Below, piece by piece: positions 4,506-64,000 of a stretch of DNA of 64,000 nt (position 1 is its first letter; the number at the start of each line of letters is the position of its first letter). The DNA lies in contig NC_057716.1 of assembly GCF_004010195.1 (NCBI RefSeq), positions 11,156,235 through 11,220,234 on the forward strand. The letters run 5' to 3'. Below the pieces are notes generated by a model that was not told the origin of the DNA, did not search any database, and saw only the letters and a program-made list of their open reading frames with translations. Both the position numbers and the translations under genes were made by a program. Source of the stretch: Chiloscyllium plagiosum (Eukaryota).

Positions 4506-5649
4506 AGTATTTCATACTACTACATAAGCAGTTTGTAAGCTTGGGTAAAATGCCATAAAACAATGGAAAATGCCTTTTGTGAAGGCTAGTCTACGTTCAA
4601 AGCTATTATTCCTACTAATGTTGCAATGGGCAGATAAAAAACAAGGTGAGTAGATTTATGAAGATTGACTTGTGTTGGCTCTCTTGCCTAACAATCTGGA
4701 AACTGTGTCCTTTTAAGGCTTAGCTGGAGGCTCTGCTAAAGCACCCTTATAGACATGCACACTCCATCACTGAGTGTGTTCTGTGCACTAGCTACCTCAA
4801 TGTTTTCTCCATTTGATGTTCAACATATAGAATAGCGCAGAACCAAAATAGGTCTGTGTCAGTGCTTTGGGGAAAGCTGGTTTATGTTCAAAATAGTTAG
4901 TTCCAGCAGTACAGCTGTGGGCAAAGCCAACTCTTTGAAAGAACTATCCATAAGTCCTGCAAAGCTAGCTTCTTCAAATATTTATCCCAACTTCTTTTTT
5001 AAAAATAACTTGTTTTTTTTATCCTAGTCGTTTCTGATTCTTTTGCAGTTATCTTAAATTTGTGCACTGTAGTTATTGACCCTTCTACGGCTGAAAGTGG
5101 AAGTTTAAAATTAAACCTATAATCTCACACAGACTCCTCTTTCCCTCAAACTCTATGTAAAATGCAATCAAAGTATGGTTGCTTCTACTGATGGGCATCT
5201 TCACTGAAGCCACTAATTAATCCTATGTCAATGCAGTTCCAGATTTAGTATAGACTGTTGTCTGGTCAGCTCCAGAACATACTGTTCTTAAAAAGCTGTC
5301 TTGCAAACACCATCAAGGCACCTTTGCCCATTTGCCTTTTACAGTTAATATAAATTAATATCTCCAGTGATTTATGGCAATGCCTTTCTGACAAGTTCTC
5401 ATTTTTTTCAGTTCTTCCCTATCCTGTGGGGTTACTTTAACGACCTGCATATGACTGTCACAAGTGACTTCTTGCCTTTATCATTTCTAACCAAAATGGT
5501 TTCAGAATTTTGATTTCCTGCATTTAGGTCATCCCTCTCTTATTGTACTAATGCGACCGTCAATAGATTCATATTCAAAGTTTGGGAGAAGATTTGTAGC
5601 TCGGGTGCTCGTTGTTGTGGTTCTGTTCGCCGAGCTGGAAATGTTTATT

Positions 5650-5689
5650 GCAAACGTTTCGTCCCCTGTCTAGGTGACATCCTCAGTGC
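5650..5689 (-). ncRNA. Minimal hammerhead ribozyme motif in the Penelope 3' terminus
   Basis: Minus strand reads GCA-CUGAGGA-U-GUCACC-UAGACA-GGGGAC-GAAA-CG-UU-UGC: both conserved boxes, stem II with one mismatch, 3-bp stem I (GCA/UGC) and palindromic ACGU helix III. Confidence 0.65.
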
Positions 5690-6271
5690 CTGGGAGCCTC
5701 CTGTGAAGCACTTCTGTGGTGTTTCCTCCGGCATTTATAGTGGCCTGTCCCTGCCGCTTCCGGTTGTCAGTTTCAGCTGTCCGCTGTAGTGGCCGGTATA
5801 TTGGGTCCAGGTTGATGTGTTTGTTGATGGAGTTTGTGGATGAGTACCATGCTTCTCGGAATTCCCTGGCTGTTCTTTGTTTGGCTTGCCCTATAATGGT
5901 AGTGTTGTCCCAGTCGAATTCATATTGCTTGTCGTCTGCGTGTATGGCTACTAAGGATAGCTGGTCGTGTCGTTTCGTGGCTAGTTGATGTTCATGGATG
6001 CGGATCGTTAGCTGTCTTCCTGTTTGTCCTATATAGTGTTTTGTGCAGTCCTTGCATGGGATTTTGTACACTACGTTAGTTTTGTTCATGCTGGGTATCG
6101 GGTCCTTCGTTCTGGTGAGTTGTTGTCAGAGTGTGGCTGTTGGTTTGTGTGCTGTTATAAGTCCTAGTGGTCGCAGTAGTCTGGCTGTCATTTCAGAGAT
6201 GTTCTTGACGTATGGTAGTGTGGCTAGTCCTTTGGGTTGCGGCATGCCCTCGTTCCGTTGTCTTTCTCTTA

Positions 6272-6840
6272 NNNNNNNNNNNNNNNNNNNNNNNNNNNNN
6301 NNNNNNNNNNNNNNNNNNNNNNNNNNNNNNNNNNNNNNNNNNNNNNNNNNNNNNNNNNNNNNNNNNNNNNNNNNNNNNNNNNNNNNNNNNNNNNNNNNNN
6401 NNNNNNNNNNNNNNNNNNNNNNNNNNNNNNNNNNNNNNNNNNNNNNNNNNNNNNNNNNNNNNNNNNNNNNNNNNNNNNNNNNNNNNNNNNNNNNNNNNNN
6501 NNNNNNNNNNNNNNNNNNNNNNNNNNNNNNNNNNNNNNNNNNNNNNNNNNNNNNNNNNNNNNNNNNNNNNNNNNNNNNNNNNNNNNNNNNNNNNNNNNNN
6601 NNNNNNNNNNNNNNNNNNNNNNNNNNNNNNNNNNNNNNNNNNNNNNNNNNNNNNNNNNNNNNNNNNNNNNNNNNNNNNNNNNNNNNNNNNNNNNNNNNNN
6701 NNNNNNNNNNNNNNNNNNNNNNNNNNNNNNNNNNNNNNNNNNNNNNNNNNNNNNNNNNNNNNNNNNNNNNNNNNNNNNNNNNNNNNNNNNNNNNNNNNNN
6801 NNNNNNNNNNNNNNNNNNNNNNNNNNNNNNNNNNNNNNNN
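6272..6840. other. Assembly gap (run of N)
   Basis: Unresolved bases within the Penelope element. Confidence 1.
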
Positions 6841-8935
6841 GGTCTGAGTGGGATGTCTGGTTTGTGCACTTTAGGTAGTCCATAGAATCTGGGGGTGTTG
6901 TTGCTTTCAGGTTTCATTCTTTGTAGGTCCAACCTGGTTATCTGTCTGTTTTTTTGTAGATTCCTCAGTGTGTTATTTATCCTATTGGTGAGCTGTGGGG
7001 TGGGGTCAAACTCCCTCTTTTGGTAGGGAATTTGACCCCACCCCACAGTTCACCAATAGGATAAATAACACACTGAGGAATCTACAAAAAAAGACAGATA
7101 ACCAGGTCGGACCTACAAAGAATGAAACCTGAAAGCAACAACACCCCCCCAGATTCTATGGACTACCTAAAGTGCACAAAGATGTAATGCAATCCTGGTT
7201 ATGCTGTTATGCAATAATCATACACCGGTGATATTGCAGCAAATCTGATAGGGAAGGGTCTTTTCATTACAACTCTGGCATAGGAATTTCTAACAGTAAA
7301 TAATGTTGATGTAAGACTTGTTAAATATTACTGTTTGATATTCTATGGAGAATTAGTGTATTGAGGTGAAGTATTGAGGTGAGGATGGCAGACATAGAAA
7401 ATAGGTGCCCTTCAGGGCTCCTGCGTCAATCAATGTGATCAAGGCTGCTTATCCAACTCAGTGCCCTGTTTTTGCTACCTCTCCATAATCTTTGATCCCT
7501 TTAACGCTAATATTTATATTTAATTCCTTCCAAAAAAAAATGCAATATTTCGTTTTTGGATGCTTTCTTTGGCAACAAGTTGTACCTTTCTCTCTGGATG
7601 AAAATATTTCTCATCTCATTGGGAGTGTTAATGAAATGTCAAATAGAAATGGCTAAAAGGAATTACTGTCCCACCCCTGAACTTCCTTTTCATTTAGGTC
7701 AGCTCCTCCTACAATCCTCTTATTGCCTATTTTATTACATTTTAAGTTTTGCTTTTGGTTAGCTGTTTTTTTCCCACACTGTCCCTTGGCAGAATTTATA
7801 CCTCACCTTGCCCTACTTTGTTAATTCATCACTGTAATAATTATTCATTCAGAAACAGAAATAAATCTGGCATGATTTTTGGGGAGAAAGTGGAGTTAAT
7901 GTTTCAAATCTGGTAACTCTTCACCACAATTATTGATTGGTGCCTGCCGCTCATTGGTTTAATATAGCAGCAAATTAAAATAAATGTTTTAGTTGTGAAA
8001 CGTTATCTTACAAATTAATTTGTATCTTATTAGCTAGATTGCAACATTCAATAGTAACTTTTTGTAGCTGTCTCTGTGGTACAGTTTCTCTTAGGTTTTG
8101 AGTTGAGATTTTGTGTTGCAATTTCACAATGTCAGCACAAACCACTGTATTGTAATTTATTTTCTTGAGTTTGTTCAACTTAATTTTTGATTTCCATGTT
8201 AGACTCTGTTATTCAGTTTTAAAAGGTACTGTCATCAGATTCTTTGAATGATCAAATTACAGTAATAGGTTTCAGTATAGGGTTTTGACATGTGTAACAG
8301 ACAGTGATAATTTTATAAGAATATTCATGGTGATCTGTTATGTACTCCCCATCTCGGGGAAAAACATTATTGTGATTGCCCTGTTTAATCTTGTCAAATG
8401 TTACTAAGTAGACTTTTTCCTACAGCTGATTGGGTTATTCTTTGTGGCTATTTCAATAGAGCATAAAAGTAACATTCTGAAATCAGGTCTGCATATGACA
8501 CCATTATGTTATTTAAACAAAAATTTATTTAACTAAACACTCATTTTGTCAGTTAGTATTTGTCAGTTAATCTTGGAAGCCTTGAGCCACCCACATTTGT
8601 AGTCATGGTTGGTGGTTCTTGTATAACTGTTTCTAGTTTCAACAAACAAGTTGAAACAAACTTACACTTTACTCTTCCAAAAGACCTATAAACTGTGAAA
8701 ATGTTTACTTTTAAAATAGATTAGATCTTTTGTGTTTCCTCGATTGTCTTGTTTCTTGCAATTAACAGCCCATTTCACGTCAGTTCTGCAATGTGCTTAA
8801 CACTCACTTAGTCTAAATTCATCATATTGCTATACTGCAAGCAGTGGTTTAACAGCTGTTTTTGAGGATGCCAGATGAAAGATAATTTCTACATTGCATA
8901 CTGAACTTGATCCATTGCAATCATTTTTGTTTCAG

Positions 8936-12659: not shown

Positions 12660-15320
12660 TATCTTAGCAAATCACTCTGTATCAAAACCACTACCCTTAT
12701 GAAAAGGAATGAAACCAGGTGAACCATTGGCATCAACTTAAGTACTGGAAATTGTAAAGTCAAACCCAGCCTGACTGTTCGGGTGGCTTTGCAGGGTCAA
12801 TCAGGAGTTTGTGCCAAAGTTAGGGAGAACATCCCCATTGACGAGTCAAGCATAGCTTGACTTAGTTATACTCAAGGAATTATTCCATACTCAAGTCTAG
12901 AGGACTTTGTATGTATGTATGTGTTGTATGTGTGTGTGTATGCATTAAATGTGACAGCACCATGATGTACCATTAGGAAGGAGTGTTGCTCTGGGAGGCC
13001 ACAACATTAACTCTGGGTTTCATGATGTCTCGTGGCATTAAGTCAAACATGGGCAAGCAACCCTTCTCTGATTACCATTTGTCACCAGCTCAACTGATCA
13101 ATCAGTACTCCTCCACTAGTTAGTGGAAATACTGAGGTTGCAGAATGTATTCTTGGTGGAAGACTTCAATGTTTATCACCAGGTATGGTTATATAGTGCT
13201 GATTGAGCTGGCTGAATCCTAAAGGACACTGCTGGTGATGATCAGAGAGCCAGCAAGAGAGAAAGCTAAACTGATGTCACTCTCCTCAAACTGCCTACAT
13301 CTGGCCATGAGCATGTAGGTAGAAGTAATCACTGTACATGTCATTGTGCTGCCAAATCTTGTTGTCATATTGATATGTTGGGTTATGTGCATGACATTAC
13401 TATTGTGTTAAATAGAATACATTTCAGATAGATCTAGCAACTCAACTGGGCTTCCATGAAACCATCAACTGCAGAATTATATCCGTACAGAATTAATCTG
13501 TAGCTCATTTGGAGCATATCTCTGCAATCTTCTATTACCATTAAGCTAGGAGATGAACCCTGCTTCATTGAAGAGTGCAGAGGAGCATACCAGGAGCAGC
13601 ACCAGTCATACCTAAAAATGGGGTGTCAACCTGGTATAGCCCTGGTATAACGCAGAATTACTTGCAAACAAAACCATGGAAGCAGCATGCAATAAACATG
13701 ACTAGATTAGAGTTGCGCTCGAAAAGCACAGTTGGTCAGGCAGCATCCGTGGAGCAGAAAAATCGATGTTTCAGACAAAAGCCCTTCATCAGGAATGGAG
13801 GCAGGGAGCTTTCCACATCCATCAAAGCTTCACCTGCACATCAACCAATGTCATTTATTGTATCCGTTGCTCCCATGCTGTCTCTTCTACATTGGGGAGA
13901 CTGGACGCCTCCTCGCAGAGCGCTTTAGGGAACATCTCTGGGACACCCACACCAATCAACCCCACTGCCCCATACCCCAACATTTCAACTCCCCCTCCCA
14001 CTCTGCCAAGGATATACAGGTCCTGGGTCTTGTCTGACGCTTGGAGGAAGAACACATCATCTTCCGCCTTGGAACACTTCAACCCCAGGGCATCAATGTG
14101 GACTTCACCAGTTTCCTGATTCCACCCCCCCCCCCCCACCTTACCCCAGTTCCAGACTTCCAGCTCAGCACCATCCTCATGACCTGTCCTACCTACCAAT
14201 CTCCCTTCTCACCTCTCCACTCCACCCTCCTCTCTAATCTATCACCTTCATCCTCACCTCCATCCACCCATTGTAGTCTTGTTACCTTCTCCCCAGCCCC
14301 TCTCTCTCTTCCAAGTGTGGCATCTAGGACTCTAGCAAAACTGGAGGCAGTAGGAATCTGGTTGGTTGGGTAGGGGTGAACTTTCCACTGGAGCCATACG
14401 TAGTGCAGAAGATGATGGATGTGGTTGTTCAAGATAAGTAATCTGTCCTGGGCTGTCAGTGCAGGAGTTCCTCAGAATACTGTCCCAGGTCTAACCATCT
14501 CCAGCTGCTTCAATTATGACTTTCCCTCTACCATAAGATCAGAAGTGGAGGTGTTCACTCATTCTGTTTAGCAATGTTCACCATGTCTTAGATACTGAAG
14601 CAGCTATGGCTACATCCAGCCATACCTGGTCAACATTCAGGCTTAGACTAAAAAGTGACAAGTAACACAAATGCCAGGCAATGGTAATCTCTAACGAGAG
14701 AGAATCTAACCATCTCCAATTGATATTCAGTGGAATTACCATCTCTGAAGCCCCCACTACCAATATCTTGCAGCCTAACATTGACCAGAAATTGAATTGG
14801 ATCGGTTATTCCTTATTGTCTGAGGTCGGAGGCTAGGAATTCTGCAGTGACTGACTTTCCTCCTGTTTCTCTGTGCCTGCTCACCATAACGTATGGGATA
14901 GAATACTGTTCACTTACCTGGATGGGTGCAACTCCAAGCACACTCCAGAAACTCAATCAGCATTTTTAACCTTCGCCACCAACCTATAGTGGGCAGCAGT
15001 AGGTACTACTTACAAGATGCACTGCAGCAAATTGCCCTAGCTGCTTTACAACTACAACCCTATGCACCTAGAAGGATAAAGTCGGCTAGATAGGAATGTC
15101 ATCACTTGCAAATTCCCCTCCAAGCTACGTTATCCCGGCTTGGAACTGTAGTGTTCATTCTTTTATTGTTGCTTTGTCAAAATCTTGGAACTTCCTTTCT
15201 GCAATATTGGTGTCCTGACAAGCACTCCAGAAATTCCAGAAGACAGCTCCTTATGACTGTCTTAAAGGCATTTATGGATGAGCCATAAATGTTGGCCCAG
15301 CCTTCCCCTGAAGGAACATA
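12660..15320 (+). mobile_element. Old degenerate non-LTR retrotransposon (CR1/L2-superfamily-like), interrupted by a Penelope fragment
   Basis: Decayed GDFNVHH-like endonuclease motif near 13160. Decayed [20 protein letters not shown] motif near 14460-14560. Confidence 0.55.
13705..14310. mobile_element. Penelope-like element fragment (second family) with inverted terminus
   Basis: + strand TSTNVIYCIRC...YIGETGRLLAERFREH GIY-YIG remnant at about 13800-14100. 13705-13800 is the same family's terminus in the opposite orientation. Confidence 0.8.
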
Positions 15321-15720: not shown

Positions 15721-16217
15721 AATTTACAGCTTCAAGGCTTTTTTTAAATCAACAACATTGTTGCAACTTCAGTTTGATTAGAAAATAATGAGAAAGTTAA
15801 CTTATTAATTTCTGTTTTTCCAGCCTTTGAGTAGATTAATTTGGAGTCTTAGTTAAGAATTTTAAAAAGGTAGAAGGACAGCTTTCCTTTTCTTCACTCT
15901 TTTTTCCCCCCCACCCTCCCAACCACAAAAAAAAAACCAGACAGCTGGCATGAGGCCCTTTGGGAAAGGCCTGCCAAGTTAGGAGCCAGTATGGCAGTTT
16001 ACAAGGCATTGGTACATTTCCACGGTATTGGCAACCTGCCCCTAATGTTATAATCAGAGACCACCCACCACTATTCTACCTGACTTAAATGCCTTTCTTG
16101 CTTCCATACTGTTCATGGGTATGGCAGAAAATATCGTCCTTAATTTTTGCTGCACATCAGTATAGAATTTGATAGAAAATGTTCTTTTTTCAAAAAAAAA
16201 CTTTTTATGTATTTCAG

Positions 16218-18698
16218 ATACTGTTTCAAATCATGCTTGGCATCCTCAGAATTGTGAAATATCTTCCATGAATAACTTTCTTGTTCCACACACATCATTT
16301 ACTGAGCAAATGCCTGAAACTCAGCAGAATGAAACTATTGTTGCATGTCAAAATGTTACCTTAAGAAAGAAAGATTCATGTTCCCGAAGTTCTAAAATAT
16401 CTCTGGAATTACTGGAGAAAAAGTGTGCTTCCTTGGCAAGAGAATCTTGTTCAAGAAATTCTAAAATCATTGATATTCCCGATTTTCACAGAATAAGTTT
16501 GGGTGGACCACAAGTTGAAATTTCTCCGATGCCACACAGCTCACATCCTTCTGATCCGCAGAAGTGTGGCACAAACCTGATTACTGAAGAACAGTCAGTT
16601 GAGCAACAGAAACCTGAAGTGACTGTCCTTGATGCAGAAATGGATCTAACTACAAGTGAAGCTGTAGAAATTGTTACTGTTGGAACAAATTCTACAAAGG
16701 GCAGAACGAAAAAAACTGGAAGAGATAATATGGAAGTTGAAACAACCTCCAAGAGTGTGGCAACTCTGCGAAAAGTAAAACAAACTAAGGGAAAAAATTC
16801 CAATAGTGCTCAAAGAAATTGCAACATTGATTCTCAGCTGTTTGAAAAGACACAAAGAAAGTGTTCTGAGGAATTTTCTGTCTTTGACCAAAACTCTATA
16901 AATAATAATGAGGAGCCCAATGTTCGTATTCCAAGCAGTGGACTGAATAATTGGCTAGTGCATAAGCAGAATATCCACCAAAATGATCAGAAGGAAGATA
17001 GTCAGATTGAAAGTTCTTCTAAAAATAATATAAACAGTATGAAAGAAACATTTGAGAAAAATACATTTAAAATTCATAACAGCATTAAGGACAGCTCATG
17101 TAATTTATTTGCCTCGAGGGCTAGTGAAATTTATAATAAACCAGAGAGGAATGAATGTCTAAATAATGAGGAAGAGAGCAGAGGAATTTCAAATACTTTG
17201 CAAGGAAATTTCTGTAATGTAAAAGAAAAGGTTGGACAAGGAACATTTACTGTGTTGAAGTATCACAATGTTGAGGAAAGTACATCTAATCTAATTAAAC
17301 AGCAAACAGTAGAGCGTGAAGTGGAAATGGCTAAACATCCAGTATTAGAAGATTACAGGAATTTAAATAACAGGAGCACTAGCCGAAGGACATTTTTGGT
17401 GACAGGGAGCAACAACATTAAAGATAATTCGCCTAAAGCAGTTGGTAAGAAAAAGCTTGGAAAGCAGAGTGTAGTGGTAACAAATGAATATTCAGATAAT
17501 TTAGAGGAGGGCTGCAGGAGCTCTCATGCGACAGAGGAAAATACTAACATTAAAGGTAAGACTGACCGAAGGACATTTGTGGTCATAGAAAAACACAACA
17601 GCATTAAAGATATTTCACCTAAATCATTTGGACAGGAGAAACTTAAAAAGCAGAGTTTGATGATAACAAATGAATATTCAGGTAGTTTGGAGGAGGGTTG
17701 CAAGAACTGTAATGCTTCAGGAAAGAATATTGATAACAAAAGTAAGGTTAACCGAAGGACGTTTGTTGTATGTAAACGCCACCGGACCATTAAAGAAGAT
17801 TCAACAAATTCATTGTTATGGCATGATGGCAAAGAGAAAAATGAAGTGGAGATGGTTGAGTGTTTAGGTAACTTAAAAGTTAGCAATACAAATAATATTG
17901 ATAACCAAAAGATGATCGTAGTGCTTAAAAGGGGCAAAAAATCATCCAAACGAGAGAAATTTAGAAATCAGCCTGAAATTACAATGGCTGAATCTTTGGA
18001 TAATCTGGAAGAAACCAGCAAGAGTTATAATGACTTGGAAACAAATATTGATAACAAAAAACGCAAAGCTGACATGGCTGCAGTGCACAAAAAACGAAAG
18101 AAATTTGAACAAAACCTCTCTGACCTAATTAAAGAAGAGAAAGATGATGAACCAGATACAATAACTGCATGTTTGCCTTGCACAGAAGGGTACAGTGAAA
18201 CTTCTGTCATGCAACAAGATTACATAAAAGGAATAGACGACCAAACGACATTTGTGGCAAACAAAATACTGGAAAATATTGAAAATCTACCTAATCTAAT
18301 TGTGGAAAATCAAAGTGAAGAGCAAATGGATGTAAATCAGCACTTGAATAGAAACAGGAAAAACTGCGATCAAAATGCAGGTGTTTCTCCTGAAAATTAT
18401 TGCAATGTGAAGGAAAGATTGGATAGAACAATTGCAGTTTGCAAAAATATTGAAGATCCACCTCGCTCAATACTGGCAGCAAGAAAAACATTACAGTATG
18501 AAATCAAGAAGGAACGAGCAGAGTGTGAGCAGAACACCCACAAAATTTTAAATCATGATTGCATAACTACTTCAAAAAAAGAAAGCCAACTTGTGGAGGA
18601 AATCTCTAGAAATAGCTCCAATGAATCTGTCACATGTCTATCCAGACGGGATGATATGGCTGTGGGTGTAACAACTGCAAAGTGCCCAAGAGTTCAAG
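16218..18698 (+). CDS. SGO2: Shugoshin 2 large central exon (2481 nt)
   Basis: tttcag|AT ACT...GTT CAA G|gtatgc inside the 889-aa ORF, phase 1/1. Contains the SGO2-type motif DAEMDLTTSEAVEIVTV and several RRTF(V/L)V motifs. Confidence 0.9.
17384..17800 (+). repeat. Coding tandem duplication in SGO2 (183-186 nt unit)
   Basis: CGAAGGAC (RRT) at 17384, 17567 and 17753. Units read RRTF..IKD.SPK..G..KL.KQS...TNEYS..LEEGC. Confidence 0.85.
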
Positions 18699-19389
18699 GT
18701 ATGCCTTTATCTTTGGTCAAACAATTAACCAATGTATATATGCACAATTTATACTACATGGCAGTTAGAACATCTCCCTCATTCTATTTTAGACATATAT
18801 GCAATTTCAATCTCCGCTGTCTCAACATTTCACAATGACTTATTTTTTGTGACCCCTTTATCTGTGGAAAAGGAAATCTTCTGGTCTTTAAAATTATGAA
18901 AGAGTTTGATTAGATAATTGCAAAGATTATGTTTTCACTTAAATATAATATGATTATTCAATGATCAAATCAATTAAGCAATTTCTTTATTGTATTGATC
19001 ATTTGAGTGGGCAGAATAGCATTGGTGTGTGTAAAAGGAGACATGGTGCCTATGTGAGAGAAAATAGATGAATATGTGGACAAGATGGGGGTAGATGGTG
19101 GAAGAAGGTAATTTAAGGTGTGAGGATATTTCTTTGGACTATGCCAACAAAAGAACTCTCAACCCATTAGTGTTGTAGAACCTTTTATCAGGTGATTATT
19201 TTGGGTTACCACCACTAGATTCCCATAATTTTCAAACTTTCATTACATTTGGGTAATCATGCCTTTAAAGGAATTGCACAATTAATGTAACAACTGAAAA
19301 ATTTATATTTACTACTTGAACAGGCAGACATAACCATTATTTAATTTCTCCTCTGAACCAATAGTAGTAGTTCTTTCTATCAAACCTAA

Positions 19390-37412: not shown

Positions 37413-39192
37413 AGGTAAAAACAAGGACTGCAGATGCTGGAAATCAGAGTCTAGATCAGAGTGGTGCTGGAAAAGCACAGCAGGTCAGGCAGCATCCGAG
37501 GAGCAGGAAAATCGACATTTCGGGCAGAAGCCCTTCATCAGGAATAGAGGCGAGGGGGGTGTGAGGGGGGAGAAGGTAGCACAGAGTATAATAGGTGGAT
37601 GGGGGTGGGGATGAAGGTGATAGGTCAGCGAGGAGGGTAGAGTGGATAGGTGGAAAGGAAGATAGACAGGTAGGACAGGTCATGAGGGCAGTGCTGAGCT
37701 GGAAGGTTGGAGCTGGGGTGAGGTGGGGGAAAGGGAAATGCGGAAACTGGTGAAATCCACATTGATGCCCTGGAATTGAAATGTTCTGAAGCAGAAGATG
37801 AGGCATTCTTCCTCCAGGAGTCGGGTGGTGAGGGAGCGGCGGTGTAGGAGACCCAGAACCTGCATGTTCTCGGCAGAGTGGGAGGGGGAATTGAAATGTT
37901 GAGCCACAGGGCGGTGGGGTTGATTGGTGCGGGTGTCCCGGAGATGTTCTCTAAAGCGCTCTGCTAGGAGGCGCCCAGTCTCCCCAATGTAGAGGAGACC
38001 GCATCGGGAGCAACGGATACAATAAAAGATATCGGTGGATGTGCATTTAAAACTTTGATGGATGTGGAAGGCTCCTTTGGGGCATGGGATGGTGGTGAGG
38101 GAGGAGGTGTGGGCGCAGGTTTTGCAATTCCTACGGTGGCAGTGGAGGGTACCAGGAAGGGAGAGTGTGTAGTTGGGGGGTGTGGACCTGACCAGGTAGT
38201 CACGGAGGGAACTGTCTTTGCAGAAAGCGGAAATGGGTGGGGAGGGAAATATATCCCTGGTGGTGGGGTCCGCTTGGAGGTGGCGGAAATGTCGTTGGAT
38301 GATGTGGTTTATGCAAAGGTTGGTAAGTGGAAATGGGTGGGGAGGTAAATATATCCCTGGTGGTGGAGTCCGTTTGGAGGTGACAGAAATGTCTTCGAAT
38401 CATGTTTGTGCAAAGGTTGGTAGGGTGGAAGGTGACCACCAGGGGGGTTCTGTCCTTGTTATAGTTGGAGGGGTGGGGTTTGAGGGCGGAGGGGCAGGAT
38501 GTGGACAAGATGCGTAGGAGGGCATCTTTATCCACGTGGGAAGGGAAATTGCGGCCATCTGGTGTGTTCTGTGGTGCAACACCCTCCCTTCCTGACACCT
38601 TCCCCTGCCACTGCAGGAATTGCAAAACCTGCGCCCACACCTCCTCCCTTACCACCATCCAAGGCCTCAAAGGAGCCTTCCACATGCATCAAAGATTTAC
38701 CTGCACATCCACCAATATCATTTATTGTATCCGTTGCTCTCGATGCGGTCTCCTCTAAATTGGGGAGACTGGACGCCTCCTAGCAGAGCGCTTTAGGGAA
38801 CATCTCTGAGGCACCCACACCAATCAACCCCACCGCCCTGTGGCCCAACATTTCAACTCCCCCTCCCACTCTGCAGAGGACATACAGGTCCTGGGCCTCC
38901 TCCACCGCCACTTCCTCACCACCCGATGCCTGGAGGTGACCTGTTCTACCTGCCCATCTTCCTTTCCACCTAGTCACTCCACCCTCCTCTCTGACCTATC
39001 ACCTCCATCCCCACCCCCATTCACCTATTGTACTCTATGCTACTTTCTCCCAACTCCCCTCTCATTTATCTCTCCACTCTGCAGGCACCCTGCCTCTATT
39101 ACTGATGAAGGGCTTTTGCCCGAAACATCGATTTTCCTGTTCCTCGGATGCTGTCTGACCTGCTGTGCTTTTCCAGCAGCACTCTAATCTAG
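37413..39192. mobile_element. Penelope-like element inserted as an inverted pair, with target-site duplication
   Basis: Left arm (-) to about 38580 and right arm (+) from about 38580 both carry IIYCIRCSRCGLL/GETGR GIY-YIG remnants. Flanked by acttcaatgatatct at 37398-37412 and 39193-39207. Confidence 0.88.
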
Positions 39193-39343
39193 ACTTCAAT
39201 GATATCTGTCAGTCAAGTATTGTAATTGAAAACTTAAGTTGAGTGGACTGTGTTAGATCTTAAAAGAATCAAATAATGCATTGTGCAGAATATGTAAAAA
39301 CACATATTTCATAAAGCATTAATTTTAACAATGCAAATCTTAC

Positions 39344-49287: not shown

Positions 49288-49611
<324 letters not shown>

Positions 49612-52327: not shown

Positions 52328-53663
52328 TGTTTAGTTTAATTTCTGCAAAGAAACAAGAAAAGATAAAGTAATCCATTCAGAGTACCTTTTCTATGAACAG
52401 TATCCTACATATATTTGAACTTTTGTGTTAAACCTTAAAACTATTGTAGTATTGTAGTAACTTTGTTAGATCACTCCTGCCAAATCTGATTAAATTTCAA
52501 CAGCTTAACCTCATGATGAAACCAAAGATTCCAAGTTGATGTAATGTAACTCCCGAAACTGGTTTTTCAATCATGTGAATGCCAAAAACTGACATTACAC
52601 ATCTCAAATACTTTAAATAAAGTACAACGCATTCACACACTTTTATGATCTTCATCCATCTTAGGATCTTCCATGTAAATTGGCTGCATTCCTGCAATCT
52701 GCAGCCTGTCACTTCTCAGTGACTGTAGATTATCACAGTAAAAAAAAAATCAAACGTTTAGCATTAGGAAGTGTAAGAGTGAAAGTGTAGTTTGGAGTAC
52801 ATGCAGAGACTTTTCCCCTGCTATATAATGGACGCTCTCTAGTCTATTTCTGGAATCTGGCACTTGAGGTCACTCTCTCAATATCACGAGAAGGAATTTA
52901 TTCAAACGGCCATGAATCTTTCAAATTCTCCACCAAAGCTGTGGATGTTGAAATCAGCCACTGTATAACCAAGACAGAGATGGATGAATAGATCTTTTTG
53001 GTGGTGGTGGTGGTGGTGGGGAAGGTGATATTGGCTAAAGGTATCAAGAGGAATGCTAGAAGTGTTAGACAGTGCAACCCGAGATAGAATTTTATGATTT
53101 GAACGGTCAGATGGCCCATTCCTGCATTTCTTAAATAAAAACCAAGTGACCAGCAGAAACAAAGACCAGACGTACTGACAGGCTGATCTTCAATAGTGTG
53201 AGAAAAGAAACCCACATAATTCTTATCCCATGGCAGTATTTCCGATACAGGCGTCTCTCTCTGCCTGCCTGCCTTGCCTGTCACCACTTGTTTGACGGAT
53301 CTTGTACTTTGCACCACAGAGACCTCTTCCTGCTATTACTCCAGCTCTCATTGCAAATGCTATGTGAGTTGGGTGGGACTGGAAACCCTATCAACCCCAA
53401 TCGGGGATGGGAGAGAAGAACTCGAGATTGAATCAGCGAAAGTGTCGATCGTGTTTTAATTTAAACGACCCGTTGAATCGTCGAGGGGTGTGTGCAGGAA
53501 AGAGAACAACATAATAAAGGAATTCCTTCTGGCTTATCAGCAGCGGTGGTGCCAAGAAGTCCATTCACCTTTTTCTTGAAGTTTCGACCTACTTTAAGTG
53601 GTATCGTTACTGAAATAGTGAATGGGATGGGGGCGGGAGGAGATGAAGAGAGACATCCCTCAC

Positions 53664-53770
53664 CTGTTCGAGAGTGCAACGTCGACGAAGGGGATGTACC
53701 AAGCTCCCTCGGTGCTCGCAGCAGCCTCTGTCAGTCCGCACTGACAGTCCGAACGCCAGCCCCGGCTGAT
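53664..53770 (-). other. IDH1: Probable non-coding first exon of IDH1
   Basis: CAG|gtgagg donor at 53664/53663 on the minus strand, immediately downstream of the CpG-rich promoter. TSS is approximate. Confidence 0.6.
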
Positions 53771-54010
53771 CGAACGGAGCCCCTCCCCACGTGATTACAA
53801 CGCCGCCCAATCCGCAGCGCGGAGGGCTGCAACCTCGCGCCCACGCCCCGCCCCGCGGCCGGGCTTTGTCCAATAGGGATGCCCCACATCAAGGTGGCCT
53901 CGAGGCCGGTGCAACGGTTGGCAGTTGACAGCTCGAGCCGCGTTTGTTTTCCGGCTCCTCGGGCCTAGGCCGGCTCCGAGTCTTCGGTATAACTGTACTG
54001 CACGTTCCTG
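53770..54010 (-). promoter_or_regulatory. IDH1 CpG-rich promoter (E-box, CCAAT boxes, GC boxes)
   Basis: CACGTG 53788-53793, CCAAT 53807-53811 and 53870-53874, GC boxes 53803-53808 and 53846-53856. High CpG density against a CpG-depleted background. Confidence 0.75.
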
Positions 54011-54669
54011 CAGTGCTGGCAGAGGGTAGGGAAACCCAATGGGACGACTTTGTAGGTCCAAATCTTAACCCTCAAGAAATTCCTTCTCAAACGAACATCC
54101 GTGACAGAACTAATGAATGTGATAGCTCGCATCGGTGCAACAGTAATTACCCTTTTTATATATAAATTTATGAGAGCGTGTAGGTAGCGCCCACAATCTC
54201 CCGTGTTATTTTGGCATAGCAGGAACTATTGTGCTCTGAATCATCGCCACCTTCTTTCCTTCTACAGCATCTCTCCCCGTTGTTTAAAATGCCAGAGAGA
54301 CTGTCACTATCGGTGTGTTTTTTTTCAGTATTAACGTTTGTTCTGCAATTAAGTACAAAGTGACGTGAAATTTGTAGCTGAACAATAATTTAGCTCAGGG
54401 GAGGGTACCTTCATTCAGCACACAGGGATATTATGGTCAGTGTTTACCTTGTCTCAGGACTTTCATTTTAATTGATGTCATTGCTTAAAATGCATCTTGG
54501 TATAAGTGGGTTGCACCACATGGGCTCAAGAAGCCTTCAAACTAAAATGTCTCCAAGAGTATCTCACTTACCTTGGTTCTGAGTGAGCTCCCTGGTGAAA
54601 GGCCAGTAGGTTTTCTTCAAAGTTTTGATATGGGGGGGCGGGTGTAGAGAGAGAGTGTCAGCTTACCTT

Positions 54670-55945: not shown

Positions 55946-56680
55946 GGTTGCAAGTTTACTTGCTGAGCTGGAAGGTTGGTTTTCAGATATTTTGTCACCG
56001 TGCTAGTTAACATCATCAGTAAGCCTCTAGTGAGACGCTGGTGTTCTGTCCCACTTTCTATTTGTGTGTCTCGGTCTCTCGAGGTGGGTGATATCATTTC
56101 TGTTTCTTTTTCTCAGGAGGTTGGTAAATGGGATCCAAATCGATGTTTTATTAATGAATTTCTAGTTTGAATGCTAGGCCTCTAGGAATTCCCGTGTGTG
56201 TCTCTGTTTAGCCTGTCTTAAGATGGATCTCTTATCCCAGTCAACAAGAAACTAGATACCAGGATACACAAACACCAACTATCCACCAAAAAACATGACC
56301 CACTGTCACTTGTATCTTTACATACAGACAAAGAAGGACACCACTTTGACTGGGACAACACATCCATTCTAGGACAGGTGAAACAGAGACACATATGGAA
56401 ATTCTTAGAGGCCTGGCATTCAAACCAGAACTCCATCAATAAATACATTGATTTGGACCCCATTTATCAACCTCTGAGAAAAAGAATCAGAAATAATATC
56501 ACCCACCTTAACAGACCAAGACAAATAAGTAGAAAGTGAGACAGAACACCAGCGCTTCACCAGAGGCTCACGGATGATATTACCTAGCATGGTGACAAAA
56601 TGTCTGAAAACAAACCTTCCAGCTCAGTGAGCAAACTTACAACCTGAACCTCAACCTGAGCTACAAATCTTCTCAAAATG
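55946..56680. mobile_element. Penelope-like element 3' end as an inverted pair (related to the 5575 family)
   Basis: + arm encodes HHFDWDNTSILGQ...LEAWHS...SINKYIDLDPIY. 55946-56220 is its inverted copy. Decayed hammerhead motifs at 55984-56021 (-) and 56569-56606 (+). Confidence 0.8.
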
Positions 56681-57904: not shown

Positions 57905-58310
57905 GCTGAATAGGCTTTTTTTCCTGGAGCATTGGAGGCTGAGGGGAAACCTTATAGAAGTTTATATAATTATGTAGTGCATGGAAAAGGCGAATACCCT
58001 TTCTGAGGGGAGGGAAGTCCAAAACTAGAGGGCATAAGTTTAAAGTGGTGGGGAAAGATTTAGAAATGACCTAAGGGGTAACCTTTTTAGGCAGATGGTA
58101 GTGTGTGTATGGAATGAGCTGCCAGAGGAGGTGGTGGCAGCGGGTACAATTACAACATTTACATGGCATCTGGATGGTTATATGAATAGAAAGAGTTGAG
58201 AGAGATATGGGCTAAATGCTGACAAACGGAACTAAGTCAGATTGGGATGTCTGGTCAGTGTGGACGAGTTCGACCAAAGGGTCTGTTTCCGTGGTATATG
58301 GCTCTGACAC
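57905..58310 (+). mobile_element. CR1 3' fragment
   Basis: ggaggctgagggg...aactagagggcataagttta...ggaatgagctgccagagga...gggtctgtttcc. Confidence 0.8.
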
Positions 58311-58849
58311 GTAACCGAATCCCAAACATTTATCCATTGATCCAAAAACATATGGGCAGGATTTGGTTTATTATTTGTCTGTCTTAGGTTCTCTTTCAAG
58401 TTAATTCTTTTTTTTCTCTCATAGTCTCTCTGCTTCTCTTAGTTCCTTTTATGTTTCCTCTGAACTTCCTATATACAGCCTCGTTGTCACTTAAAGTTAT
58501 CTGACAGCATCACATGCCCTTTTTTCTGTTTCATCTTACTTTTTTCTTCCCTAAGACTCCAATTACTATGGCATTAAGAAATTCCAATAGAAAATGCATA
58601 CCTATATTATTGGTAAAAGCTGCCAGATGGCCAAAATAAAAATGTTATTCATACCTTCATTTTCTGCGTTGGTGACTTATGATTTTGATACAAACTTTAA
58701 AAGTCCCAAATTGAATAATTTGCAATGATGCAGAATCTTAATCATTTCCAGTAGGACCACCAGGTTAGGGGAAAAGGAACTATGAAAAAGACCAGTGAAT
58801 CAACATCTAGCCAATCAGTTCTACCATAAGAGCTGAATTCCAAAGTTGA

Positions 58850-59400
58850 TGTGCGAATGACTGCTTTTGACATCAGGTGCACATTTTACTGAGTGTCACA
58901 TCAAGCAGCCCTAGCAAAACTGGAGTCAGTGAAAATTAGGATGAAAACTCTGCTGGTTGGAATCTGACTCAGCACAATGTTTGAGATTGTTGGAAGTCAA
59001 TAATTACAGCTCCAAGATATCTCTGCAGGATCTCCTCAGGATAGATATATTTCTAATCAAGCTGTTCAGAAGTGATATTACACACCACTGGAACAGAAGG
59101 AACTTGAACATGGGCATCCTGTCTTAGAGGTATGGACGCTAACCACTGCACAATGTAGTTGATGAATCCACAATGTTCAGAACAATTTGTGATTCCTCAG
59201 ATACTCAAACAACCCATGTCTATATGCAGCAGGACCTGGGCAATATCCAGTCTTAAGACTAAGTGGCAACTAACATACATGCTACACAAGTTCTAGGCAA
59301 TCACTGTCTCCAACATGAGAAAATCTAATTATTGTGCTTGACATCAAATGGCAATTGAGTACCCCACAGTGGAGTTGCCATTGATAAGAATGAACTGGAC
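58850..59400 (+). mobile_element. Old LINE RT fragment (same family as 12660-15320)
   Basis: ctgcaggatctcctcagg...tcctcagatact...atgcagcaggacctgg...aatatccag parallels 14460-14800. Confidence 0.45.
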
Positions 59401-59544
59401 CAGACAATGGGGGTTGGATCTGCCTAAGTCCCAGATCCAACGAGTATATGAACTGCTCTAGATCAGTTACAGAATAGAGATGAATGAATAGTACAAGTCC
59501 AGCATTTAAATACTGGGCGACTGGACCAGTGTCATGCCGGATGA

Positions 59545-60465
59545 AGAAAAACCCTTTGCTCCAACTCGTCCATGCTGACCAGATTTCCCAAACTAAACTC
59601 ATCCCATTTGTCGGTGTTTGGCCACTATCATTCTAAACCTTTCCTATTCATGTATAGGACCAAATATCTTAAATGATGTAACTGTTCCGGCATCTACCAC
59701 TTCCTCTGGCAGTTCATTCCATATACACACCACCCACTTTGTGAAAAAGTCACCCCCCCAGTTCCCTTTAAATTTTTTCCCTCTCAGTTTAAACCTATCC
59801 CCTTTAGTTTTGAACTCCCATATCCTAGGGAAAAAGACCTTAGCTATTCACATTTTCTAAGCCTCTCATGATTTTATAAACCTCTTTAAAGGTCATGTCT
59901 CAACTTACTATGCACCAGAGAAAAACATTCCCAGCCTATCCAGTATCTCCTTATAACTCAACCCTTGCAGTCCCAGTAACATCCTTGTAAAGCTTTTCTG
60001 CATCCTTTCTAATTTAATATTTTTCCTACAGCAAGGCGATCAGGCTATATGCAGTACTCCAAAAGTGGCCTCACCAATGGTCCTGGACGGAAGTGGATAC
60101 TGCACGGAAGTGGGGATTAAAGTCAAGATTAGAGTGGTACTGAAAAAAGCACAGCAGGTCAGGCAGCATCCGAGAAGCAGGAAAATCGCCATTTCGGGCA
60201 AATGCCCTTCTGATGAAGAGCTTTTGCCCGAAATGTCGATTTTCCTGCTCCTATGATGCTGCCTGACCTGCTGTGCTTTTCCAGCATGCACCAATGTTCC
60301 TCAACTTGATGTCCCAACTACTCTTCTCAATGTTTTGACCAATGAAGACAAGTATGCCAAATGCCTTCTTCACCACTCTGTCTACCTGTGACACCACTTT
60401 CAAGGAATTATGTACGTGAACCCCTAGGTCTCGCTTTTCAACAACATTCCCCAATGCCCTACCAC
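59545..60465 (-). mobile_element. CR1 3' part with a nested inverted Penelope-terminus hairpin (about 60085-60289)
   Basis: RDLGVHVHNSLKV...VVKKAFGIL remnant. The insert is flanked by caccaatg(g/t)tcct direct repeats. Confidence 0.8.
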
Positions 60466-60582
60466 TAAAATCTAATCTAATCTAATCTAACTGCATCAGA
60501 TGGTAGAAATTCTGCAGTAAACAACACACTTCCTGATTCCTCAAACTTGTTCACCACCTACACCTCCACTTATCTGGAAGGG

Positions 60583-60678
60583 ATCACAACCACCTGATGA
60601 AGGAGTGGCGCTCCGAAAGCTAGTGTGCTTCCAATTAAACCTGTTGGACTATAACCTGGCGTTGTGTGATTTTTAACT
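60583..60678 (+). mobile_element. 96-bp mini-insertion consisting mostly of a hammerhead motif, with TSD
   Basis: Flanked by tta(t/c)ctggaaggg at 60570-60582 and 60679-60691. Confidence 0.7.
60591..60625 (+). ncRNA. Minimal hammerhead ribozyme motif (intact core)
   Basis: CAC-CUGAUGA-A-GGAGU-GGC-GCUCC-GAAA-GC-UA-GUG: stem I CAC/GUG, stem II 5 bp, palindromic AGCU helix III, predicted cleavage after A60622. Confidence 0.7.
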
Positions 60679-60849
60679 TTACCTGGAAGGGTGCAGCTTC
60701 AAAAATACATTTGAGAAGTTGCACATCCCAGATCTCCCGTGCAATCACGGACAGACAATAACTGCTCTCCTGGTCAGCGACAGCCACATCCCAACAATGA
60801 AAATATTTTTAATACACCATCCTTGCAAAAATGGAAAATGAAATTAGGT

Positions 60850-61150
60850 GGGGAGTCCGGAACCGTGTGCGCCACCGCTACACTAACGCAGTCAGGAGGG
60901 AGCGCGCACGTCACCGCCGGCGCACCAGGGAGCGCGCACGTCACCATGTTGGTGTAAGGAGGGAGCGGTTCAAGGGACTGAGATGATGTGAGTGAGCTGC
61001 TCCTGGAGGCCTCTGTCCGATTGTCTGCCCGCCCTCTCAGTCAGCGGACTGGTGCGGACCCTGTGAGAGGTGAGTGCCCCGGGAGACCTGGCAGGGCTCC
61101 ATTAAATTAACCCGGACTGGGTTGAGGCCGTTCAGGCCCCGGTCCGGGAC
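60850..61150 (+). promoter_or_regulatory. CpG-rich promoter / non-coding first exon of a gene divergent from IDH1 (possibly PIKFYVE, by synteny only)
   Basis: CpG-rich patch with a duplicated agggagcgcgcacgtcacc. Consensus donors GAT|gtgagt (60987/60988) and GAG|gtgagt (61069/61070). No coding exon found before 64000. Confidence 0.55.
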
Positions 61151-64000
61151 GTCGATGTTTGGTTTTGGTTTTGGTGTCCTCATCTCCACCCCATTCCATG
61201 CTTTTTTTAAAAATATGGATTACCTTCCCGGTGGAAAAAGAGCTGGTACTATTCCATCATCCATAGTCTGCAGCCGATCTGGAGCGGTTCACAGAGCGGC
61301 TGGGTTAGGAGCAGAGTCTAACCGCACCATAGAAATATCTGTGGAATAAGTTGCGATGGAACCACTGTGGTTGGCTATCCTTCATGTGATGAGAATGATG
61401 TGACTGCGTTCAGTCTCATGATCAGCTGCAACTCCTCTCTCCGCTGTTGTTTTGTGGGAGGGTATTTGCACTGCAGTGTCCAATATCCGTTTGGTGTCTG
61501 TTTCTGAAATGTACCTGTTGTCATTGATCGCATTTCACTTGTTTGGTTTCAGCCCTTTGGGTAATAATGCATGCCGTCAAGGGGTAGAATAGAATGGTTT
61601 TCAAGCTTTTGCTATTCGTCCATCATTTGTGTGTTTACCTATGGATTCATTCTTGAATCCAATTTTTTTTTGGAAATTACTAATTAGTATCGCAAGCTGC
61701 CAATCGTTTAGCATATATTCAATCCTGAGACATCGCTAACAGCAATCCTTTCTAACAGCCCAGATTTACAAAGCCTATCGCGAATAACTATAACGATGTA
61801 GCTATTTAAATAGTATTCTCCTCTCTGAACTATGTACTACAATTCACCGTGTGGCCCACAGGATATATTTTTGGACATCCCTCTTGAATTGTGTGCTACC
61901 TTTTGTCGTTGGAGATTGCTGTACCGACAGAAAAACGGGTTTAGTTCGGCTGTGTGAGAGTTTGAGCTGTAAATGAGCCATACTACATTTGCTGGTGATC
62001 TGAGAAATTGACAAGCAAGGTGATTCCAGAATTTAGAACAAGTGACAGGAAGCATTGAGCATTTGAAGAATTTCTATTAGGGGATTAAACCTTTCCCCCT
62101 AACCAATCCTTATACTGTATGAATTGTAATATACCCTAAACCACCAGAAAACCATTGATTAGTTTTATTGCTGCCAAATTAATCTAAGCAACGTACTGGC
62201 ATTAGTCAAGCAGCTATCAAAAGGACACAGTGGCCAACAAATAAGCTTGATAGATGAATGATGTTAGGGGAAGGGTCGAAGCTTCAAGAATGAAGGCTTC
62301 AACAATTTGTGCTAGGACCATTATTGTTTTGAATATACATCAACTCAAATTTGGGAATTCATCACATATCTGGTAAAATTACAAACATTTGTAAATTATG
62401 GGGCCAGTTTATACACTCTAAGGGTTCTATGATCTGAAAAAAACTGAGTGAAATCCATGTTCGCAGGTGAGAAATAAATAGGTGATAACTTTTACAGATG
62501 CTGTTGAAAGAAATTTATTGGTATTAGATTTTAAGTCTGAGTCTTAAAAATGGTTATCAGAACTAATTTGAGAGGATACTATTGTGATTTAACTTCCAGA
62601 TAGCTTTCGTAGTTGACTGAAGTTCATATTAATATATTTGTGCTGCTTCCTTAGACAAGATGTACATTTGAGAACTAGTTTACTAATTTGTGACATTATT
62701 GGTCTAAACAATATCAGCATATTCAATTAGTATGGATCAGAAATCAACAAAGCCAACAGAATAGTGAAACACATTGCTAATTCAGTAGAGTTTAACATTG
62801 GAAGATGAAATACCCTATCAGTCCAGAAGTGTTGTCAGAATGTAGTTTGAACTTTGTACCTATGTATGGTTATCACATCAAGATCCTTGAATGTTGTGCT
62901 ACTGTGACAATATACTTCTTCTAATAGAAGAGCTAAAATGGGTAAAATCGTCATCTTCCTCTATATTTAATTCACACTTTGGCACTTCAACTGTACTTTG
63001 TTAATATAAACAGTAAGTAATGAAGTTACTGAATAAACCTTAGTGAAATGTTTATCTAATGAATTCTCTCTGGTTGGAAATTAATGTGTAGAAATGTCTA
63101 ATTATGTTCTACCATTTATTAAATTGGAAATTAAGTTTATTTGGTATGGTAAATATCTTAAGCCTAAATAAATATAATTATAAACTTTGTGATCTTTAAG
63201 TAGTGATATAGGTGCAAAATTACACTTCTGAATTTTAAAATGCTTCTACGTTTCATGCTATATTTCCACTATATGCTATATTTCTTGAATAAATAAATTA
63301 TTGCAGAGAGTATCAATGTTGCTGTGATTGAAAATGTTAAGTGCCCTAAGTAACCAAACATAAATCAAATGATACATCTATCTCTGTCGGACCATTTCAG
63401 AGTCATGAAGAATCCTTACCTTTTAAAAATGGAACATTACTTTTTACGCCCCTTTAGGTTACTGCAGCATGCATCTTCTCCCTTGCTATGTCAAGAACTC
63501 CTAGTATTCTCATCCTTGCCAACTATTGCTAAATCACTGTCTTTTAAAATGTAATCTTTAATTAGAACCCAGTAAATTTTGGTAGTTTGAAAGTAAAACT
63601 CAAAATGCTGCAGGAACATTATCTACAGAGGCAACAGATCAGTTGACTGACCTTCTGTATATTTCCAGAATTTTGTTTTTTGTTCTTGACCTTATCTACA
63701 TCTGTGTCCTTCGGCTGCATATTTTCCCAAGCAACATCTGCTCCACAGTCAGTAGGTTAGTCCATATATCTCTGTTTCTGTTGCTTTGCATGTTATGACT
63801 TGAATTAAGTAACTGTTTGAGATCAGTAAAAATCTTTAACTTTGATGTTTACTTGTAACAAGAGGTTGTCCGTAGATGGAAGGGAAGCATAATGTGGCAG
63901 TAATTGGGGATTCAATAACTAGCAAGACTATGATTTGAGAGCAGAGTTAGGAGTCCCATGTGATAACTTGATTTGCTGGTGCAAGGATGAGGAGCTATCT

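Follow-up and report, generated by a model that had tools for sequence, protein, structure and literature searches.

The 96-bp insertion at positions 60583-60678 of the window (the whole 64-kb stretch of Chiloscyllium plagiosum DNA analysed here) is most probably a copy of the end module, or pseudo-LTR, of a Penelope-like retrotransposon (PLE), in which a minimal hammerhead ribozyme motif is combined with a likely poly(A) signal, and which as a lone copy is likely inert. A hammerhead-bearing PLE stub is in itself ordinary, of a kind described in 2014; the new element here is RNA evidence that the module of this family fixes a 3′ end.

The insertion and its hammerhead motif

The insertion is flanked on both sides by a 13-bp direct repeat (60570..60582 and 60679..60691, by repeat comparison), with one mismatch between the copies and more mismatches in longer registers. 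Among 20,000 trials with random 96-bp stretches of the window, 24 had a repeat of equal quality within 5 bases of both ends, which bears out the 96-bp insertion and once-mismatched 13-bp duplication proposed in the first-pass annotation. By contig alignment, the inserted module is likely a + strand pseudo-LTR fragment, lacking the tail, of a high-copy Penelope-like family. When contigs of sequencing runs are compared with 60450-61200, the family aligns across 60585-60680 only, and the letters at 60583-84 do not belong to it, differing from the upstream family letters in loose ends. The 3′ border is uncertain by 2-4 bases because the family goes on with TT at 60679-80 and ACTT also precedes the left repeat. 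None of the 15 joints listed, out of 58 contig joints, is an empty-site allele, and no second copy of the unit, of its tail or of its upstream motif was found within the 64-kb window.

A strict descriptor identifies a minimal type I hammerhead motif at 60591..60625 on the + strand. Helix I is formed by CAC (60591-93) and GUG (60623-25), 3 bp; the core box CUGAUGA (60594-600) is followed by an extra A (60601) before stem II, whose 5 bp (60602-06 with 60610-14) include one U.G and the pair G60602-C60614 and close a loop II of 3 nt. GAA (60615-17) precedes helix III, which consists of the palindrome AGCU (60618-21), and A17 is 60622, with cleavage predicted after A60622 (a CUA triplet). The poly(A) signal occupies the other half of the unit, behind the hammerhead.

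This architecture is that of the minimal hammerheads of PLEs: CUGANGA and GAAA boxes, an NUH triplet, an extra base before stem II, a G10.1-C11.1 pair and palindromic positions 15.1-16.1. Cervera and De la Pena (2014, PMC4209133) describe the metazoan PLE minimal hammerheads in the same terms, as type I motifs with no helix III of their own, a palindromic 15.1-16.1, an extra base between 9 and 10.1 and a G10.1-C11.1 pair. Differences lie in helix I, which has 3 bp here against 4-5 in the schistosome families of that account, and in the CUA triplet of the insertion; the available parts of the account name no sharks and no poly(A) signal. The ORF of the green anole Poseidon element is described as starting at stem II (PMC11167929), whereas the ATG in the core here opens only 8 codons before a stop, and an ORF from it was rejected.

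An abundant family with two kinds of 3′ end

Four of 24 listed sequencing runs (X1, X10, X5 and X21) were aligned to 60450-61200 at 85% likeness. Contigs pile on the unit in large numbers (34,590 in X1, 22,623 in X10 and 20,737 in X5), and in these three runs summed depth reaches 10^5-10^7 over 60580-60683, compared with 8-20 on the unique flank. Summed contig depth translates into 10^4 to 10^6 depending on the correction and is not a copy count; the family is plainly very abundant, and the insertion is not a rare one. About half of the family contigs are 90-95% like this copy.

The 3′ ends of the family are of two types. One stops at 60677-79, where the flanks are unrelated and AT-rich; the other runs past 60680 into a common AC-rich sequence (first 30 letters; 1228, 980 and 605 contigs). 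At the opposite end, loose ends of both DNA and RNA enter a common family sequence, visible for about 40 letters upstream, so the module is the terminal part of a longer unit. The loose ends before 60585 form a mixture (agreement 0.43-0.47), and at least 975 RNA reads in X21 extend upstream of the module.

Variation within the family is largest in loop II (60607..60609, + strand), with 60607 and 60608 each at about one third of summed depth in X1. At 60606 the family majority has C, giving a C-G pair where this copy has U.G, and the other variants listed in the unit are at 60590, 60635 (T or A) and 60660 (majority T), together with 2-base deletions at 60623, which touches the repeat of helix I, and at 60663. 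All of these 6 substitutions and 2 deletions lie outside the CUGANGA and GAAA boxes and leave stem II paired; among the variants listed, the tail half of the unit, outside the ribozyme, is about as invariant as the ribozyme half. By change counts the 18 variant rows beyond those listed are mostly C>T and G>A, which makes low-share decay in the core likely, and variants at 5-12% beyond those listed may be present there.

RNAs of the family carry A-runs behind a likely poly(A) signal

X21 comes from single-cell poly(A) sequencing; about 2% of the run was sampled, and 2,283 reads aligned out of 12,955,460 records. A-runs were found in 1,137 listed reads of the 2,283, at a single register (60652..60654, + strand) that is likely the site of poly(A) addition: 538 begin behind 60654, 434 behind 60651 after a C, and 165 at the same register in a variant with a 2-base deletion. 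The register lies 13-14 nt after the hexamer ATTAAA (60634..60639, + strand), which a common variant, T60635A, turns into AATAAA; it stands just before a GU/U-rich tract (60656..60678, + strand; 74% G+T, 48% T) and about 30 bases past the predicted cut. ATTAAA and AATAAA are the two commonest poly(A) hexamers, and a hexamer, then tail addition, then a GU-rich tract is the standard layout of a poly(A) site. At the family level the unit thus has the layout used by RNA polymerase II, with a hexamer 10-30 nt upstream of the end and a GU/U-rich tract downstream. The tract, which ends at the 3′ border of the insertion, would serve as the downstream element.

The + strand, which is that of the hammerhead, makes up 83% of X21 depth at 60635, and sense-class depth is 1516 there and 331 at 60660, a fall attributable to the loose ends with A-runs, while the other class is steady at 303-306. 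A-tailed reads have a median loose length of 67-89, as a tail plus barcode predicts, and no A-run at this register appears in the 18 rows of loose ends listed for X1, X10 and X5. A point against is that summed depth between 60635 and 60660 also falls in X10 (3.2M to 1.1M), a run of unrecorded kind, though it rises in X1 and X5.

We consider it probable that the family module contains a true poly(A) site. The chief competing explanation, to which we give perhaps one part in five of our belief, is that oligo-dT primed on A tracts in the genome that follow a few truncated copies with high expression, which would yield the A-tailed reads with no working signal. Genomic A-runs may indeed exist at a few source loci. 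About half of the tailed reads (599 of 1,137) carry C at 60652, a letter present at less than 5% in X1, and may thus stem largely from a few loci; one class of upstream flank accounts for 377 reads (agreement 0.81), and the observation comes from a single run, with the comparison of loose ends covering the rows listed and a further 580 rows lying outside it. Against such priming, however, at least three haplotype classes have their A-runs at the same register, 13-14 nt after a hexamer whose sole common variant exchanges ATTAAA and AATAAA, with CA or TA at the junction and the GU-rich tract behind it. The priming explanation would in any case touch only the poly(A) detail and not the assignment to PLEs.

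A poly(A) signal is not general to PLE modules, because within 110 nt of the core a hexamer is present in none of six family-B copies and neither of two family-D copies in the window; one is present behind one family-C copy. Among the openly accessible articles reached by literature searches on PLE poly(A) signals and shark PLE hammerheads, none describes a poly(A) site within the pseudo-LTR of a PLE.

A probable Penelope-like origin

Several features of the family are those of PLEs. Such elements are reported to carry an optional 3′ tail of 30-40 bp (PMC8557442), with two internal start points of reverse transcription behind their two 3′ ends (Frangieh et al. 2024, PMC11167929), and target-site duplications (TSDs) of 8-10 bp are reported for PLE inserts (PMC3846280). 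Here the tail is optional in the manner of PLEs (EN+), with ends at 60677-79 as against continuation after 60680; the duplication is 13 bp with one mismatch; and 9 of the 15 joints listed are to the opposite strand, the inverted arrangement known from PLEs. The green anole Poseidon element, as described, has like this family two 3′ ends that differ by an AC-rich tail, and AT-rich flanks (PMC11167929). Thousands of solo minimal hammerhead motifs per genome have been ascribed to truncated PLEs (PMC4209133).

The window contains nine other hammerhead-like loci, from three other families, none of which passes the strict descriptor. Two of the nine immediately follow a GIY-YIG-type frame in the same orientation, and Pfam recognised one of four PLE protein fragments, just below the curated cut-off. 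A reverse transcriptase and GIY-YIG frame upstream of the module is seen for these other families only, the family of the insertion having one copy in the window. The first-pass annotation had assigned the insertion to PLEs with a dimer-type hammerhead; abundance, optional tail, inverted joints and the GIY-YIG layout of the other window families support this as the likely origin.

The other PLE loci in the window are varied. At 5570-7049 (minus strand) lies a Poseidon-like PLE remnant that includes an assembly gap and has a hammerhead core at 5686; an AATAAA (5649-5644) directly behind this hammerhead is a second such case, in one copy only. A 1.7-kb fold-back PLE insertion at 37448-39195 contains a GIY-YIG frame (37680-38399, minus strand) with a zinc-finger-like motif upstream; close to either end of the insertion a family-B hammerhead faces outward (37541 minus and 39102 plus), and further family-B modules lie at 13792, 22478 and 40027. 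A decayed fold-back insertion of a fourth PLE family occupies 55946-56644; its two hammerheads, at 56019 (minus) and 56572 (plus), are degenerate. Finally, 60140-60285 is a near-perfect fold-back of 146 bp (z -18.5), in which two end modules of a second PLE family meet head to head with the hammerhead core at the centre. It is inserted into a LINE fragment, some 300 bp upstream of the 96-bp insertion, and a CpG-type change has disrupted the helix III palindrome of this hammerhead.

The insertion could have arisen as follows. The element's endonuclease would nick the target, and repair would leave the 13-bp duplication. Reverse transcription would start at the first of the two internal start points of the element RNA, which would leave no tail, and would come to an end some 9 bases upstream of the core of the hammerhead, where the RNA itself probably begins. 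The template cannot have been an RNA ended at the poly(A) position, because the insertion runs 24-26 bases past it; a full transcript, copied at its upstream repeat, or else a read-through RNA would have served instead. The order in a tandem element would then be start, hammerhead, poly(A) site, start of reverse transcription and tail, and in a full tandem element the module would resemble the R region of an LTR, its poly(A) signal ignored near the cap and used at the far end. The mRNA of such an element would have a hammerhead at both ends, which together would make up the pair required by the AGCU palindrome; a solo copy would at most provide a poly(A) site for + strand transcripts that traverse it.

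Alternatively, the 96-130-bp module could be a non-autonomous mini-element, SINE- or retrozyme-like, transcribed and copied as a unit of its own. The very high abundance and the clean TSD would suit this, as would a preprint in which PLE pseudo-LTRs are given as the source of animal retrozymes and solo monomers are described (Li, Clavereau, Pollet 2026, 10.64898/2026.07.22.740005). The non-LTR retrozymes described there are, like the insertion, non-coding and PLE-derived, with a type I hammerhead; one chondrichthyan is included, whose tandem units have a mean of 363 bp. Retrozymes are, however, defined by two or more tandem units, each with a hammerhead, whereas the copy here is solo and single within the window. 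Tandem joints are rare in the family (2 back-joints among the 12 rows listed), the loose ends that enter a common upstream sequence mark the module as part of a longer unit, and an RNA ended at 60652-54 would lack the last bases of the insertion. We therefore regard an independent mini-element as improbable, and retain the end module of a longer PLE as the preferred reading.

Age, constraint and genomic setting

A contig of a second organism, organism B (60625-61196), spans the 3′ junction, with 41 other letters in 570 and 10 gaps. Since the junction is shared, the insertion predates the split from organism B and is therefore old. Of its 96 bases, 2 depart from the family majority, a number not below what drift at half the divergence of the flank would give (P = 0.33). 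Under drift of 7-3%, the 15-base core should still be intact in 34-63% of copies. Because drift leaves the core intact in about half of copies, its survival is no sign of a host role. The AGCU palindrome contains no CpG; five of the six family-B copies are broken at or next to helix III by CpG decay.

The unit lies between two CpG islands, on the same strand as the downstream exon. On one side are an IDH1 exon (49288-49611, minus strand) and a CpG island that is likely the IDH1 promoter (53601-54100). On the other, a CpG island at 60801..61300 (+ strand; called in 300-bp windows with GC>0.55 and o/e>0.6) contains a splice-donor-like site, GAG/GTGAGT, at 61069/61070, and is likely to hold the first exon of a gene divergent from IDH1. 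The putative promoter that had been placed about 200 bp downstream of the unit corresponds to this CpG island, with CpG-rich sequence beginning about 170 bases after the unit. Contigs of X5 fork at 61069, and one X5 contig starts at 60840 and ends exactly at 61069, with zero depth over 60710-60839, although the kind of run is not recorded for X5 and gaps in it prove nothing; its extent suggests what RNA of a first exon would give. No coding exon is recognisable by eye behind the island in 61000-64000. Human gene order would make PIKFYVE a candidate for the gene downstream; a literature search for it gave no match.

Within this island an 18-bp motif (GC-rich with CACGTCAC) occurs twice, at 60900 and 60929 (60900-60947), and looks from its sequence like paired transcription-factor sites; organism B differs at several positions of the pair. 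Elsewhere in the window, the large exon of shugoshin 2 (16166-18838, + strand) has protein identities of 94% to Chiloscyllium punctatum and 90% to Hemiscyllium ocellatum, the best 2 of 13 hits, as befits a genome of bamboo-shark type.

This setting, between two CpG-island promoters that are divergent, raises the possibility that the host has retained the copy for a function, in which it would end (by its poly(A) signal) or cut + strand RNA from the IDH1 side ahead of the next promoter. The strand is right for such RNA, the motif and the poly(A) signal are both intact, the 3′ junction is common to organism B at about 7% flank divergence, and the insertion is the sole strict match among the 10 hammerhead-like loci in the window. 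Yet the copy's own flanks have no reads in X21 (depth 0 at 60502-60579 and 0.04 at 60684-60709, in 2% of one run), its conservation is not above drift, the CpG-free AGCU explains the contrast with family-B copies, and there is no partner for a dimer. A host role is thus very improbable. As a local effect of what we take to be an inert PLE end module, a poly(A) site that + strand RNA arriving from IDH1 could use is more plausible than cleavage, and no such use was seen in X21.

Hammerhead statistics and cleavage

The strict descriptor has one match in the 64-kb window and none in 300 dinucleotide shuffles, and the complete minimal hammerhead with its extra base and AGCU palindrome reads as the first-pass annotation had given it. 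An Rfam search of 58000-64000 (E<=10) returned no hammerhead among 9 weak matches, which we do not count against the motif because Rfam models expect a helix III; in minimum free energy folding the unit does not stand out (z -1.5 for the 96 nt and -0.85 for the core). Both results are explained by the absence of a helix III of the motif's own, and neither lends it support. That the match is due to chance, to which the Rfam blank and ordinary folding scores would be congenial, has next to no probability given the empty shuffles and the three other window families in which the boxes and the extra base recur. Pattern scans elsewhere gave one match among metagenome contigs, in the unrelated context of a bacterial-looking contig and taken as chance, and none among viral contigs or prokaryote genomes.

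The proposal that the insertion could cleave transcripts crossing the promoter found no support. A double-hammerhead fold of two copies reaches -15.5 kcal/mol, against -15.4 to -18.2 for two separate monomers, so the dimer fold brings no gain. Single schistosome minimal hammerheads are reported not to have cleaved, while dimers did so weakly (PMC4209133), and the anole hammerhead is reported to cut only with the element's protein, with no RNA ends at the hammerhead site in RNA-seq (PMC11167929), as in the family studied here; insertion of the anole element does not need cleavage, according to the same source. A solo copy such as ours would not cut, because the partner for its AGCU palindrome is missing, and with its flanks free of RNA reads we conclude that this lone copy is likely inert.

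For the family as a whole, depth in X21 shows no step at the cut site (1569 at 60608 and 1774 at 60623), and no pile of read ends is listed at 60623. Many tailed family RNAs are therefore uncut; some cutting is still possible, since a tailed product of 30 nt would probably be lost from such a library.

Stem II (60602-60614) is nearly self-complementary, and two copies fold best as a duplex with swapped stems II, at -31 kcal/mol. By comparison with the double hammerhead, this modelled duplex may compete with dimer formation or may nucleate it.

Implications

The family invites comparison with two known systems. In the rodent Clec2 3′-UTR hammerhead, as described in PMC6765202, the cut site lies upstream of the poly(A) signal, as in the insertion, and cleavage would remove the tail; that ribozyme is split, active and confined to one host gene family, whereas the insertion is a predicted, dimer-dependent motif in a mobile repeat, and by analogy it would work like the Clec2 hammerhead only if it cleaves. 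SINE-borne poly(A) signals in host 3′ UTRs are a reported case of a repeat that spreads poly(A) signals (10.1101/2020.11.30.405357), as this family would; SINEs, in that report, have A-rich tails, no ribozyme and use in host 3′ UTRs, whereas the A-runs here are those of repeat RNAs.

A more speculative extension, which we think unlikely as it stands, is a coupled ribozyme and poly(A) cassette. The hammerheads at both ends of the element's mRNA would pair in cis and trim cap and tail, and tens of thousands of stubs would hand shark transcripts poly(A) sites that could be cut with a partner RNA or the element's protein. If true, the cassette would amount to the Clec2 arrangement made mobile and spread across the genome.

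How PLE transcripts end, and what a poorly active hammerhead does for them, are the questions on which the proposed element order bears. It would give a concrete and testable layout, like the R/U5 of an LTR, and predicts which PLE RNAs can be copied and which can cleave. Many shark 3′ ends may come from this repeat.
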